From UHGV virus genome UHGV-0112548: a stretch of DNA of 13,225 nt; one strand, 5' to 3'. Numbering within the stretch: position 1 is the first letter of the stretch; each line of letters opens with the position of its first letter. The stretch comes from a virus. The notes beneath the pieces are model-generated. The model had not been told where the DNA came from and searched no databases. It saw nothing but the letters and a program-made list of their open reading frames with translations. The position numbers and the translations under genes were made by a program. Below, one piece after another: positions 1,950 through 6,618 of the stretch.

Positions 1950-2891
1950 TCACCCCCTGAATCCTGCCGGGATCTGGCTGTAGTCCACGTTGTCGTAACT
2001 GGATTTGAAGTACGGGTCTTCGCGTTTTTCGATGTACGTGCTGACGGACGGCGATAAGCGCAGGGAAAGCTCATCCCATTTTTCCCGCAGCTTCGACGGG
2101 CTGAGCACGTTACGGCACCAGAACGGATCGCGGCTGACGCGGCTGTACATCTCGCAGATTTGTTTGTGAGTACGACCATCCTGCACACACATCAGGCGAA
2201 TTTCGTTTGCCCAGGCTGTCCAGTTCGGTTCTTTGGGACGAACCACCTCGCCGTCACATTCGGCGGCCTGCTCGTACAGGGCGATGATTTTTTTCCAGAG
2301 CCACTGTGCGCAGGTCAAATCATCCTGCGTTCCCCACTGGCGCTTTTTAGGGCTGAATACAACCGCATCAGGATGGCGAGTTAAAAAATCCTGTTCATCC
2401 GTCTGCGTGTCCGGTTGCGAAGCGTCCGGACGAGAAGTTTTTTTATCTGACGGATCATGTTTTGATTTTACTGACGGATCCCCGCCAGATTCTGACGGGT
2501 GAAAACCCGCTTTTTTGCCAGATTTCGACGCATCAAATTTTGACGGGTCAGATTTTGATGCGTCAGATTTTGACGGGTCAGAATCTGACAGTTGAGAAAA
2601 TGCCGCTGCCTGAAGCTTCGCAACGTTAAGCTGATAAACATTCGACGCATTGCGGTTACCCTGGCGACGCGCCTTACGCGTTAACCAGCCTTCTGCTTCC
2701 AGCCGTGCGATAGCCGTTCTGACGGTACTCATCCCCGCGCCAATCTGGCGGGCAATGGTTTCAATTGATGGCCAGCACACACCTTCGTCATTACTGAAAT
2801 CAGCCAGGCGGGCCATAATTGCCACGCTGGATAATTTCATGCCTGATGCAGCGCAACCATCCCATACATAGCCGGTTAATTTAGTGCTCAT
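1950..2891 (-). CDS. phage replication initiator (HTH N-domain, low-complexity linker encoded by iterons, conserved C-domain)
   Basis: 313 aa; N-terminus has a helix-turn-helix-like segment (SIETIARQIGAGMSTVRTAIARLEAEGWL); the SDxSKSD linker is encoded by the tandem repeats at 2445..2591; GAGG SD before the ATG at 2891. Arrangement mirrors lambda O with ori inside the gene. Confidence 0.6.
   Translation of the reverse strand: MSTKLTGYVWDGCAASGMKLSSVAIMARLADFSNDEGVCWPSIETIARQIGAGMSTVRTAIARLEAEGWLTRKARRQGNRNASNVYQLNVAKLQAAAFSQLSDSDPSKSDASKSDPSKFDASKSGKKAGFHPSESGGDPSVKSKHDPSDKKTSRPDASQPDTQTDEQDFLTRHPDAVVFSPKKRQWGTQDDLTCAQWLWKKIIALYEQAAECDGEVVRPKEPNWTAWANEIRLMCVQDGRTHKQICEMYSRVSRDPFWCRNVLSPSKLREKWDELSLRLSPSVSTYIEKREDPYFKSSYDNVDYSQIPAGFRG
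2445..2591. repeat. iteron array (about 8 copies of a ~15-bp GATTYTGACGGRTCA-like unit) with adjacent AT-rich patch; putative origin of replication
   Basis: Read directly: units at 2445-2459, 2470-2484, 2487-2501, then four phased tandem 15-mers at 2521-2535, 2536-2550, 2551-2565, 2566-2580 and a partial unit 2581-2591. AT-rich gaagtttttttatctga at about 2433-2450. Confidence 0.6.
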
Positions 2892-3847: not shown

Positions 3848-4045
3848 TTATGCCGCAGCACTGTTAGTCTTTTGATATAAAGACACGTCAACTTTCAGTT
3901 TCCCGTTAGTAATTTTTTCTAACTGGTACGCTCGGCCTTCAGGAATAATCTCAGGCCACTCTGAAACAGACGGATGCTTAATACCTAGGGCTTCGGCAGT
4001 TTTACAAACTCCGCCGAAATAATTAATCACGTCGGATTTCCGCAT
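3848..4045 (-). CDS. cro: Cro-like repressor (YdaS-type HTH)
   Basis: 65 aa, divergent from the CI gene; NYFGG..KTAEALGI..SVSEWPE..IP..RAYQLE..T.GKLK matches the small Cro/YdaS-type HTH pattern; GGGAG SD upstream of the ATG at 4045. Confidence 0.7.
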   Translation of the reverse strand: MRKSDVINYFGGVCKTAEALGIKHPSVSEWPEIIPEGRAYQLEKITNGKLKVDVSLYQKTNSAAA

Positions 4046-4140
4046 TTCTGTCTCCCGTTAAATTACGTTAAGCAGAAATGTAGGATATCCAACATACCAA
4101 TGTCAAGAATCCTACATGGGCATGTGGTAGGATTGCCTAC
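4046..4140. promoter_or_regulatory. divergent PR / PRM-like promoter-operator region
   Basis: On the minus strand: TTGACA (plus 4101-4106), 18-bp spacer, TACATT (plus 4077-4082) with the 18-bp operator ATGTAGGATATCCAACAT (4078-4095) over the spacer and -10. A second symmetric element AATCCTAC-N11-GTAGGATT (4108-4134) overlaps a TAGGAT -10-like hexamer 7 nt before the cI ATG, implying a leaderless cI mRNA as at lambda PRM. Confidence 0.55.
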
Positions 4141-4794
4141 ATGATGAACATGAGTGATCGTATTCGCCAAAGGCGAAAAGAACTGAACCTGACACAACAA
4201 GCACTGGCTGATTTGACTGGTGTGAACCGTGTCACGGTTACTGGATGGGAAAAGGACGACTACCAACCAAATGGAGCCAACCTTCAAGCCCTAGCCAACG
4301 CACTTAAATGCGATCCTCTGTGGCTTGTTAGCGGAAAAGGCTCGCCTGAACCAAAGATAAATCTAAAACCTGAAATATTCGCAGTTAAAAAAGTCCCCCT
4401 CATCTCGTGGGTTCAGGCGGGTTCATGGACAATGACGGAGCCTGGTGTCAGGAAAGAAGATGCTGAAGAGTGGGTTTATACTACCGCCCTTGTATCAGAA
4501 ATGGCATTTGCACTACGGGTCCGTGGTGATTCAATGACCAATCCCCTCGGCTCACCATCGATACCAGAAGGTTCTATCGTTATCGTAGAGCCAGATATTA
4601 TTGATACAGAGTGTATTAACGGAAAAATCGTTGTTGCCCATATCAATGGTGGGCAAGAAGCGACACTCAAAAAATTTGTTGAGGACTGGCCGAACAGGTA
4701 TCTCGTCCCACTAAATCCTAACTATAAAACTATTGAATGCGGTGAGAACTGCAGAATAGTTGGTCTTGTCAAACAAGTAATAATGGATTTTTGA
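4141..4794 (+). CDS. cI: CI-type prophage repressor (HTH_XRE N-domain + S24 LexA-like autopeptidase C-domain)
   Basis: 217 aa; N-terminal HTH (LNLTQQALADLTGVNRVTVTGWE), C-terminal serine motif VRGDSM and downstream lysine (ATLKKF); divergent from cro across an operator region; no SD upstream. Confidence 0.85.
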   Translation: MMNMSDRIRQRRKELNLTQQALADLTGVNRVTVTGWEKDDYQPNGANLQALANALKCDPLWLVSGKGSPEPKINLKPEIFAVKKVPLISWVQAGSWTMTEPGVRKEDAEEWVYTTALVSEMAFALRVRGDSMTNPLGSPSIPEGSIVIVEPDIIDTECINGKIVVAHINGGQEATLKKFVEDWPNRYLVPLNPNYKTIECGENCRIVGLVKQVIMDF

Positions 4795-4815
4795 CACATC
4801 TTCCTCACTATCGCA

Positions 4816-4840
4816 AAACCGGGGTATCCCCGGTTTTTTT
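4816..4840 (+). terminator. rho-independent terminator downstream of cI
   Basis: AACCGGGG-TAT-CCCCGG GC-rich hairpin followed by a run of seven T (4834-4840), about 20 nt after the cI stop. Confidence 0.7.
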
Positions 4841-4856
4841 ATGAGCCTATCTTTTT

Positions 4857-4910
4857 ATGTAGGATAACCAACATAAACTCTTGACACTCACATGTTGGAT
4901 ATCCTACATT
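4857..4910 (+). promoter_or_regulatory. PL / OL-like promoter-operator
   Basis: TTGACA at 4881-4886, 18-bp spacer, TACATT at 4905-4910. Operator ATGTTGGATATCCTACAT (4892-4909) is the exact reverse complement of the PR operator at 4078-4095; a second copy ATGTAGGATAACCAACAT lies at 4857-4874. Confidence 0.55.
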
Positions 4911-4992
4911 TGTTTTTAGAGTAGCCGCCGGTGGCATATGAATAACCGGATGATTCGCTGACAGAAAACTTAGGTTGGGGGTAGAGGTTTAC

Positions 4993-5358
4993 ATGAATCA
5001 TTTATTCACATGCTCATTTTGCGGAGCAACCGAACTGGGAGCGATAAAGATCGTCGCAAAAGGTGGTAAGGACGAACCTGCCATCTGTTCGGAATGCGTA
5101 GTCACATGTGTAGAAAAAATGATCCTGACTAAAAAATCAGAGGCTGAAAAACCAACCTCTGATAACGAAATAATATCAGTCGATAAAAAACTATTTAAAG
5201 AGCTTCTTCAGCTTGTCCTCAACCTTCCTGATTTCGGAAGTAAGCTGGCTGCTGTTGACATTGATAGTAGCTCCACATCGACAAGTGAAACTTTTGTTCG
5301 ACTTGAGCCAAGCGATTTTCTTCTTCGTCTTAGTGCCGCACTTAGGGCATGCGGGTAA
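4993..5358 (+). CDS. small protein with ClpX-type C4 zinc finger (ClpX N-terminal zinc-binding-domain-like)
   Basis: First ORF downstream of the PL-like promoter; ATG at 4993 after a GGGGGTAGAGG SD (the track start at 4975 is an alternative). CSFCGATELGAIKIVAKGGKDEPAICSECVVTC parallels ClpX [30 protein letters not shown]; no AAA+ module follows. Confidence 0.55.
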   Translation: MNHLFTCSFCGATELGAIKIVAKGGKDEPAICSECVVTCVEKMILTKKSEAEKPTSDNEIISVDKKLFKELLQLVLNLPDFGSKLAAVDIDSSSTSTSETFVRLEPSDFLLRLSAALRACG

Positions 5359-5388
5359 CGTAATTTCCTGGTTATCAAAAGCGCCCAT
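5191..5388 (-). CDS. small zinc-ribbon protein, antisense to the 3' half of the ClpX-zinc-finger gene
   Basis: 65 aa from the second ATG (5388), which has an AAGAGGG SD about 7 nt upstream. Contains CPKCG..(18 aa)..CRCG and a Lys-rich tail. Overlaps 5191..5358 of the plus-strand ORF, so one of the two may be a shadow ORF. Confidence 0.4.
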   Translation of the reverse strand: MGAFDNQEITLPACPKCGTKTKKKIAWLKSNKSFTCRCGATINVNSSQLTSEIRKVEDKLKKLFK

Positions 5389-5481
5389 AAACATCCCTCT
5401 TGGTTGTGTGAGAACACCAAGATACCACCGCGCCTGATGTGGTTAAAAGCAGGCTAAAGCAATAACAAGTAACTCCCTGTT

Positions 5482-5531
5482 CTGGCGGCCCGGTGTTTTC
5501 CCGTGTATTTCCGGTAACCGCCAGCCTTTTT
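5482..5531 (+). terminator. putative terminator-like hairpin (tL-like) in the leader upstream of rdgC
   Basis: CTGGCGG (5482-5488) pairs with CCGCCAG (5519-5525) around a ~30-nt loop, followed by CCTTTTTC. The loop is long for a classic terminator. Confidence 0.3.
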
Positions 5532-5536
5532 CAGGG

Positions 5537-5648
5537 CACAACAGAAAAGGGCATCACCGGGCGACGGGCTCATAACCCAATCCACCCGGGCAAAAAGAAA
5601 GCGGTCTCTGCAAGCCGCCGACCAATGCAGGTGCCCTTCTCTGTTGTG
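5537..5648. other. long-range inverted repeat (17 bp, one mismatch) enclosing ~78 nt; predicted long RNA stem in the early-left leader
   Basis: CACAACAGAAAAGGGCA at 5537-5553 versus TGCCCTTCTCTGTTGTG at 5632-5648 (reverse complement CACAACAGAGAAGGGCA). Confidence 0.4.
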
Positions 5649-5700
5649 TATGGAGAAACTAACTTTTTAGCGCCGGTGCAGAGGCGTTGAGGAACCGAGA

Positions 5701-6618
5701 ATGAACAATCCGTTTTTCAAAAATATGTTGGTGTATCGCATTAGTCGCGATTTCACCATCAACCAGGAAGAGCTGGAACAGCAGCTTGAACTATTTCGCT
5801 TCACTCCATGCGGTAGCCAGGATATGGCAAAAACCGGTTGGGTATCACCACTTGGTCAGCTGTCAGATCGCTTGCATCACACTGTCAATAATCAAGTGTT
5901 GTTGGTTATTCGCCGGGAAGAAAAAATACTGCCATCTCCTGTCATTGCTGAAGAACTGCGCAAGCGTGTGTCGCGTCTGGAATCCGATCAGGGGCGTCGC
6001 CTCAAAAAAACTGAGAAAGATTCGCTGCGTGATGAAGTGTTGCACTCCCTGCTTCCTCGGGCGTTCTCCAAAAACTCGACTGTTAGTTTGTGGATCAACG
6101 TCACCGACGGTCTGATCATGGTTGATGCAGCCAGCGCTAAACGTGCCGAAGACTCACTGGCCCTGCTTCGTAAAACTCTCGGTTCTCTCCCGGTGGTACC
6201 GCTGACTATGGAAACGCCGATCGAACTAACTATGACCGAATGGGTTCGTTCCGGTAGTGCGCCTGCTGGCTTTGGCCTGGGTGATGAAGCCGAACTGAAA
6301 GCTATTCTTGAAGATGGCGGTATTGGACGCTTTAAAAAACAGACTCTGGTCAGTGACGAAATTCATGTGCATCTGGAAGCTGGCAAAGTAGTTACAAAGC
6401 TGTCTATCGACTGGCAACAGCGCATTCAGTTCGTTCTTTGCGATGACGGCAGCATCAAACGCCTTAAGTTCTCTAATGAGATTACAGAACAAAACGACGA
6501 TATCGACCGTGAGGATGCGGCTCAGAGGTTCGACGCTGACTTTGTTCTGATGACCGGCGAGCTTATCTCTCTCATTAACGGATTAACAACCTCTCTCGGC
6601 GGCGAAGCCAAGCGATAA
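5701..6618 (+). CDS. rdgC: RdgC-family recombination-associated protein (prophage-borne paralogue)
   Basis: 305 aa; [62 protein letters not shown] and [14 protein letters not shown] track E. coli RdgC along its full length as I recall it. GAGGAA SD before the ATG. Confidence 0.85.

Follow-up and report, generated by a model that had tools for sequence, protein, structure and literature searches.

A ClpX-type zinc finger encoded first after pL in a virus genome, and a conserved zinc-ribbon gene antisense to its tail

Why would a prophage carry, as the first gene behind pL, a zinc-binding domain of the kind with which ClpX begins, and what is the stretch of protein that follows it? The question is raised by a plus-strand open reading frame (ORF) in a 13,225-nt stretch of the virus genome UHGV-0112548 (the whole stretch is referred to here as the window), located where phage lambda carries N. 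In this study, we report that the first 46 or so codons of this ORF encode what is, on the evidence of its sequence, a real and selected homologue of the ClpX zinc-binding domain (ZBD) without the AAA+ module, and that its last 56 codons are the antisense of a conserved zinc-ribbon gene on the minus strand. A probability of roughly 0.4 is given to the reading that the plus-strand product is an early-expressed, soluble decoy of the ClpX N-domain, competing for adaptors or substrates. The ORF and its parts are as follows.

4993..5358, plus strand: ORF of 121 aa; stop TAA at 5356-5358; the product starts MNHLFTCSFCGATELGAIKIVAKGGKDEPAICSECVVTC
4983..4987, plus strand: Shine-Dalgarno sequence AGAGG of this ORF, 5 nt ahead of ATG 4993, read from the sequence
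4993..5130, plus strand: ClpX-type zinc-binding core, residues 1-46, with ligands C7, C10, C32 and C35
5161..5190, plus strand: ten plus-only codons, SDNEIISVDK K, with conserved E-x-I-x-[VI]-D-K, adjoining the minus stop
5191..5358, both strands: antisense overlap of 168 nt (56 codons) between convergent genes, in the same codon register

Two start codons are available to the plus ORF, TTG 4975 and ATG 4993; the second, which RefSeq uses, is the better one, and the frame itself exists as it was given (4975-5358) in a first-pass annotation made from the DNA letters. That annotation had treated all 121-127 residues as one mini-protein, a description that had to be given up: the finger takes up only about 46 residues, and beyond residue ~46 its relatives carry tails of 10-65 residues that are mutually unrelated. 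The functional unit of the plus protein is the N-terminal ~46 residues, joined by a short linker to the antisense of the minus gene. The possibility that the ORF ends ahead of the overlap was ruled out, the first stop codon being found only at 5356, and since no stop precedes the overlap, translation of the mRNA would necessarily include the tail. AlphaFold2 (AF2) gave the plus protein a predicted local distance difference test (pLDDT) score of 53, with 40-60 in the tail.

The cysteines of the plus protein are arranged as C7-x2-C10-x21-C32-x2-C35. Its only Pfam match was zf-C4_ClpX (PF06689; E 7.6e-6, residues 6-41), and precomputed Pfam hits were listed for a near-identical protein (P0001) and for two others (P0012 and P0013). 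The only matches in NCBIfam were two ClpX equivalog models, aligned through their N-termini only (residues 4-75) and scoring 15-21 bits against cutoffs of 359-371. When the single plus protein was compared with PDB sequences, every match was a ClpX, and a profile built from five phage homologues matched seven entries, all of them ClpX, at E 3e-5 to 6e-3, the next matches lying above 0.1. Thirteen positions were invariant between the phage proteins and the N-domain of E. coli ClpX (among them the four ligands and the non-ligand residues S, F, G, K, A, I, E and V), at an identity between the finger and ClpX of about 34%; the core segment of the E. coli N-domain used in this alignment agrees with PDB chain 2ds5. 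The flanks CSFCG and ICxECV are identical to those of ClpX, the spacer between the two Cys pairs is 21 residues long versus 18 in ClpX, and F9 of the phage finger is the counterpart of ClpX F16, which belongs to the hydrophobic partner-binding pocket (PMC7804408).

At the DNA level, the changes inferred in the 46-codon core among 18 distinct DNA versions fell 19/25/63 on codon positions 1/2/3 (p 5e-8), and in 18/18 distinct homologous sequences every Cys of the core was invariant. The assignment as a ClpX-type ZBD is made because ClpX-specific profile matches, invariant cysteines and codon periodicity come together. No AAA+ module follows the finger, the ORF ending at 121 aa. The homology to the ClpX domain and the absence of the ATPase, both put forward in the first-pass annotation, were thus borne out.

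The closest known counterpart is ClpX's own N-terminal ZBD (E. coli residues ~10-50; PDB 1OVX, 2DS5-2DS8), which shares with the phage finger the C4 pattern together with CSFCG...K.IA...ICxECVxxC and a length of about 40 residues. The phage finger differs in being free-standing, in being prophage-encoded as the first pL gene, in a 3-residue insertion and, at the 34% identity given above, in sequence.

The place of the gene on the phage map was read from the immunity region upstream, which contains the following features.

3848-4045: cro-like gene (P22_Cro, E 7.6e-22)
4141..4794, plus strand: gene for a CI-type repressor (Pfam Peptidase_S24, E 3.7e-25; HTH_3, E 1.1e-15)
4815..4844, plus strand: intrinsic terminator of the repressor transcript, with a 10-bp GC-rich stem (4815-4837), a 3-nt loop and U7
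4857..4910, plus strand: the leftward operator and promoter (OL/pL), two 18-bp operator copies (4857-4874 and 4892-4909) flanking the promoter
4881-4910, plus strand: pL, TTGACA (4881-4886)-18-TACATT (4905-4910), 10/12 in the promoter scan

The repressor terminator folds at -17 kcal/mol (z -3.9), and 0/200 shuffles were equally stable. The palindromic 18-bp operator, ATGTAGGATATCCAACAT, is present at 4857 and 4892 and once more in the rightward operator (OR, 4078-4095), between the cro-like gene and the repressor gene; the operator search gave 6 strand-matches over these three sites, with 0 expected by chance. Because the repressor gene, its terminator and the operator-flanked promoter precede it, the plus ORF is the first gene after OL/pL, as the first-pass annotation had placed it, and the same placement recurs in related prophages of Salmonella and E. 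coli. In the Salmonella phages F1055 and 118970_sal3 and at the loci L089 and L124, too, the finger gene comes first behind an S24 repressor, and finger versions of 57-70 aa occupy the same slot in two Salmonella phages and >40 viral contigs. The finger is encoded at 71 IMG/VR loci, most commonly in a 67-aa form, followed by forms of 61-63 aa, of 112 aa and of 121 aa (the window type), and proteins of 57-70 aa named 'ClpX C4-type zinc finger' form a cluster that is represented on >1000 Salmonella contigs. A 901-nt query region was partially matched in 402/5426 complete E. coli genomes; at least 80% of it was present in 37 complete E. coli genomes, including Nissle 1917.

As a database entry the plus protein is not new, and belongs to a catalogued family (PGAP, UniProt, PHROGs). 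The Prokaryotic Genome Annotation Pipeline (PGAP) names the product 'ClpX C4-type zinc finger protein' (WP_001374361.1 / WP_016240143.1), phrog_20296 matches it over its full length (E 3.2e-68), and its first 56 residues match phrog_5259, a family of 70 residues. The 121-aa protein has homologues of two kinds: some share the finger only, and the others carry the C-terminal ~60 residues on unrelated N-termini, among them AlpA helix-turn-helix (HTH) domains, PF27050 and coiled-coil regions. The literature search found no functional study of such phage ClpX-finger proteins, and no paper that names the locus tags. The earlier remark that no phage system of this kind had been described consequently stands as far as function is concerned and falls for annotation.

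What could such a protein do? Once the CI-type repressor is inactivated, pL would transcribe the finger gene first, early in lytic growth. The free ZBD-like protein would be expected to dimerise as the ClpX ZBD does, and could then compete for ZBD-docking partners, such as the tails of SspB- or RssB-type adaptors, or ZBD-dependent substrates; alternatively, it might pair with the N-domains of ClpX itself. Either route would change what ClpXP degrades. The timing of expression, the binding of zinc, dimerisation and contact with ClpX or its partners are predictions from the letters of the genes. The ZBD of ClpX is the docking platform for SspB and RssB, and free ClpX ZBD supplied in trans inhibits RssB-mediated breakdown of sigma-S by ClpXP (PMC7226468). 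The isolated ZBD used as a competitor in vitro titrates adaptor or substrate, as is proposed here for the phage protein, although it is an experimental fragment of ClpX (PMC7226468), whereas the finger is a natural phage gene product with predicted binding only.

In map position the finger gene corresponds to lambda N and HK022 Nun, the first ORF downstream of OL/pL, but the plus protein has no Arg-rich stretch and no match to an antiterminator family in Pfam; N-like antitermination was rejected, no feature being found in its support. Phage-encoded modulators of host ATP-dependent proteolysis include RexB of lambda and PinA of T4. The rexB gene lies in the immunity region, and its product has been reported to protect lambda O and antitoxins from Clp proteases. 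RexB is expressed in the lysogen along with cI and is a membrane protein, PinA targets Lon, and neither is known to resemble ClpX. Their likeness to the decoy idea is looser.

A somewhat unlikely alternative is that the fold was recruited as a small dimeric zinc scaffold, and that the finger is a protein-interaction or nucleic-acid-binding module unrelated to ClpXP, serving as an early regulator at the 'N position' in, for example, the control of transcription, replication or host takeover. In related phages the first-pL-gene slot is held by unrelated small proteins (AlpA-type HTH, PF27050, coiled-coil), a pattern that points to a position for early accessory functions of various kinds. Identity to ClpX amounts to only 34%, and the Pfam ClpX finger also occurs in non-ClpX architectures, such as relatives of cyanobacterial sigma factors (PMC11119718). 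On the other side, the similarity is specific to ClpX at every level tested and reaches surface and core residues beyond the zinc ligands, and no DNA-binding family was matched by the plus protein in Pfam. Of the two readings, the decoy is taken as somewhat the more probable.

The second half of the question concerns the tail, which is the in-register reverse complement (nt 5191-5358, the last 56 codons of the plus ORF) of a conserved minus-strand gene with the following features.

5191..5388, minus strand: gene for a 65-aa zinc ribbon, start ATG 5388, CPKCG...CRCG and a C-terminal helix
5399 to 5395, minus strand: Shine-Dalgarno sequence GAGGG of the minus gene, six bases ahead of ATG 5388
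5427 to 5419, minus strand: extended -10-like TGGTATCTT, from a 12-locus alignment
5446 to 5441, minus strand: -35-like TTAACC, from the 12-locus alignment
5130..5163, minus strand: intrinsic terminator, with a 12-bp stem (5163 to 5136) and U6 (5135 to 5130)

The minus protein is M(FM)GAFDNQEITLPACPKCGTKTKKKIAWLKSNKSFTCRCGATINVNSSQLTSEIRKVEDKLKKLFK (ORF 5394/5388-5191); the upstream in-frame ATG 5394 has no spacing to the Shine-Dalgarno sequence. A HMMER search of 1.84 billion representatives returned 336 relatives at E<=1e-3 and 9 at <=1e-10, most of which, at 62-76 aa, stand alone and align over their whole length. The family is characterised by CPxCG-x17-CxCG, a W-[LI]-K motif and a C-terminal helix; C17, W27, C36 and C38 were invariant in a 26-sequence alignment, from which AF2 predicted a zinc ribbon with a C-terminal helix at pLDDT 80. 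No significant match to the family was obtained in Pfam, NCBIfam, PADLOC or PDB, the hits being generic zinc-ribbon noise, and the minus protein scored below the curated cutoffs of Lar (17.7 vs 28.6 bits), Com (15.9 vs 22.9) and YnfU (16.9 vs 36). Its distant members map to the early or immunity regions of phages, frequently in the orientation opposite to that of the early operon. In the original GenBank annotation of Nissle the minus gene is ECOLIN_10270, with 65 aa; RefSeq omits it and keeps the longer plus ORF. The minus ORF is also present in the 37 complete E. coli genomes in which at least 80% of the 901-nt query region is covered. A published anti-phage clone of Nissle, 'pr' (PMC5987069), was considered as covering the locus and was ruled out, its primers not mapping there. 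A scan of genome contigs for the module added only 3 loci.

The ends of the minus ORF and its four Cys are kept in nearly all of the diverged copies inspected, the exceptions being L038 (frameshift) and L032 (Cys to Tyr), and the plus-frame residues opposite two of the minus Cys alternate between T and A, corresponding to the Cys codons TGT and TGC on the minus strand. Among the individual variants, the minus protein of L045 has CG changed to CA, and in L038 and L066 the loss of 1 nt at the plus stop breaks the N-terminus of the minus protein and lengthens the plus ORF to 147 aa; for these, as for L032, decay or sequencing error is possible. In one group of phages (L012 and L039-L045) the zinc-ribbon/antisense module stands apart from the repressor, between LysA-like and HNH/terminase genes; the flanking genes there are all on the plus strand, and the plus ORF begins 20 nt after the preceding gene.

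Within the overlap each gene's stop codon, read on the opposite strand, is a Leu codon of the other gene, and both frames are open, with the same two stop positions, in 18/18 distinct sequences, the exception again being L038, with a frameshift in both. By parsimony, 304 changes were inferred in the 18 distinct module sequences, the counts ignoring recombination. On plus codon positions 1/2/3, the changes numbered 27/10/13 in 13 minus-only codons, where the minus wobble is enriched (p 0.002), 18/13/35 in the ten plus-only codons, where the plus wobble is enriched (p 7.6e-4), and 91/31/66 in the 56-codon overlap. The pattern of the overlap differs from that of the plus-only region (p 0.009) but not from that of the minus-only codons (p 0.47). 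Minus-frame identity exceeded plus-frame identity in 10/10 pairs; in a four-category analysis, omega(-) was 0.41 or 0.11, and omega(+) was 0.87 among minus-nonsynonymous changes and 0.23 when taken from very few doubly synonymous sites. The substitution pattern, the pairwise identities and omega(-) together indicate that the minus frame dominates the evolution of the overlap, and the minus gene is under purifying selection. The first-pass annotation had foreseen that the conserved product might prove to be the minus-strand ORF; this is the case for the 3' half of the plus ORF, where the minus product belongs to the family of 336 clusters and dominates the substitutions.

The plus tail appears to be kept open by some selection, and a functional domain is a possible reading of it. 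A further step would be true dual coding, in which the 56-codon plus tail is a selected C-terminal module, overprinted on the zinc-ribbon gene and common to at least seven different early proteins. We consider this unlikely. At least seven unrelated N-terminal regions are followed, in frame, by the open plus frame, and no ascertainment bias enters here because loci retrieved through the minus protein were included; the in-register antisense frame is, however, also open, or closed only at its very end, in 4/5 distinct distant members of the family, so that the openness is partly compositional, and from codon usage alone the probability of an open frame is 0.06-0.26 per sequence. Among 88 minus-synonymous changes, 0 created a plus stop where 4.2 were expected (P 0.014), and the plus replacements caused by minus-synonymous changes were more conservative than expected, also after stratification by transition/transversion (p 0.001 and 0.013); an rdgC control was not significant. 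Set against this, the rate tests gave no plus constraint (omega(+|N-) 0.87), the minus-synonymous rate was alike inside the overlap (about 1.7/codon) and outside it (about 1.5/codon), and the overlap pattern is the one already described as indistinguishable from minus-only coding.

Codon choice in the minus gene bears on the same point. Minus Leu13 uses only TTA or CTA in 18/18 sequences, while the other Leu sites vary freely, and the plus stop is therefore always TAA or TAG; the ten plus-only codons just before the overlap show the plus-frame periodicity given above. Minus Lys codons are AAG in 75% of cases versus 33% in the background, frozen site by site (p 0.004), a bias that could instead reflect the avoidance of poly-A runs. 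More speculatively, the module could be a tethering or degradation tail, as it ends ...FLLRLSAALRACG and its L-R-x-h motifs resemble LKxh, the consensus for ZBD-binding peptides (PMC7226468). This match is, on the contrary view, a 4-residue motif dictated by the CPxCG knuckle of the minus protein; the AF2 pLDDT of the tail is 40-60, and the majority of finger proteins do not have this tail. It is distinctly doubtful that all of these elements combine, with a selected antisense pair, an overprinted 56-residue module placed on at least seven early proteins, and a finger protein that would unite a ClpX-like receptor with a ClpX-tethering-like tail.

Antisense pairs of bacterial genes have been described in E. 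coli O157 and Pseudomonas (PMC9927249, PMC8850804; reviewed in PMC7457138), in which, as here, one stretch of DNA carries two long ORFs on opposite strands, the younger ORF being confined to particular taxa. The present pair, which is predicted from sequence, differs in that the 'mother' gene is a short minus-strand zinc ribbon, that the frames are in exact codon register, and that several different plus genes have the overlapping frame as their C-terminal tail.

The remaining explanation, that the plus ORF alone is real and the minus ORF a chance 'shadow', as in the current RefSeq annotation, is rejected as highly improbable. In its favour, PGAP annotates just the plus ORF, and 5.8 billion predicted proteins contain one minus-protein cluster versus 11 plus-tail clusters, a scarcity explained by the preference of gene callers for the longer plus ORF. 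Against it, 336 minus-protein homologues stand alone elsewhere, plus-frame T/A changes leave the four Cys intact, plus-only coding is rejected by the pattern of substitutions (p 0.009) and a correctly spaced Shine-Dalgarno sequence is present at ATG 5388.

How might a gene in this position be expressed? Lambdoid prophages carry morons, which are independent promoter-gene-terminator cassettes. The minus gene likewise lies opposite to the operon, has putative signals of its own and may be interchangeable at its slot; it differs from a moron in overlapping the coding frame of its neighbour instead of being placed between genes. In this phage it would be a moron-like insert with its own ribosome-binding site, promoter-like block and terminator. 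While pL is shut, the prophage probably expresses it, and after induction convergent transcription from pL would run over it and silence it. Its 5' signals sit in a conserved block, CCACxTCAGGC..GGTGGTAT, which may have promoter activity, and folding of the 5' untranslated region gave no significant structure (z 0.2). The minus-strand terminator is located just past the minus stop, within the linker of the plus ORF (KKSEAEKPTSD), and folds at -17.6 kcal/mol (z -7.0).

The same block, in the form CCACxTCAGGC..GGTGGTATCTTGG, was observed on the minus strand of the window at 5405-5446, at ~3150-3200 of L089 and at ~3020-3070 of L124, where it heads three unrelated minus-strand ORFs at one slot. 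It looks like a shared promoter or a recombination boundary for interchangeable inserts. Because the same block precedes different minus ORFs, the stretch from the first pL gene to rdgC can be regarded as a site at which minus-strand inserts are interchangeable. Between the plus ORF and rdgC, the gap of ~340 nt (5359-5700) is mosaic, and related contigs have insertions of ~245-580 nt near 5540, which suggests a further insertion hotspot near this position of the window.

Several points weigh against the picture of a ClpX-type finger followed by the antisense of an independently expressed gene. As a single sequence the finger scores 26.2 bits in Pfam, 0.8 bit short of the gathering score of 27.0; relative to ClpX it has the 3-residue insertion between the Cys pairs, and its position 42 is Lys, where ClpX has I46. 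The promoter of the minus gene amounts to a consensus-like conserved block only (8/12 plus a TG motif), and the minus terminator was not found in the three other cassette types scanned (AlpA-, coiled-coil- and short-type). Finally, because the plus tail shows signs of selection, 'finger plus passenger tail' may be too simple a description.

Further along the pL transcript, a neighbouring structure was observed.

5536..5650, plus strand: conserved Y-shaped RNA fold of the pL transcript, ahead of rdgC

This structure was also found at 3447-3545 of L089 and at >40 IMG/VR loci. It consists of a basal stem of ~20-24 bp closing two small hairpins, with -54 kcal/mol and z -4.0 in the window and z -6.8 in L089; it shows compensatory GC<->AU changes and several invariant U-G pairs, which would be mismatches if the structure were on the other strand. 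A search of 4700-5800 against Rfam at E<=1 returned nothing relevant and no match to it. Candidate roles for the Y-shaped RNA are those of an RNase III site, of a put-like antiterminator and of an rdgC leader. At 5524-5537 the window, read on the minus strand as GCCCTGAAAAAGGC, is one G short of the lambda boxB hairpin, this reading being on the strand opposite to pL transcription. Elsewhere, at 2440-2650 (minus strand), within the initiator-like ORF 1950-2891, tandem repeats of the DPSK/DASKS type are present, with repeated QILTGQ-type translations on both strands; these repeats are probably iterons (an origin) inside a replication gene, as in lambda O.

For the annotation of such phages, the locus is a case in which automated annotation hides a conserved minus-strand gene beneath a longer plus ORF. 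It also constitutes a well-replicated natural data set on antisense-encoded tails, with 18 distinct sequences and at least seven N-terminal contexts. The finger could be a natural phage modulator of adaptor and substrate choice by ClpXP, of which we found no description, and a free homologue of the ClpX N-domain, kept in many prophages of Salmonella and E. coli as the first pL gene, offers a cheap and directly testable candidate for that role.

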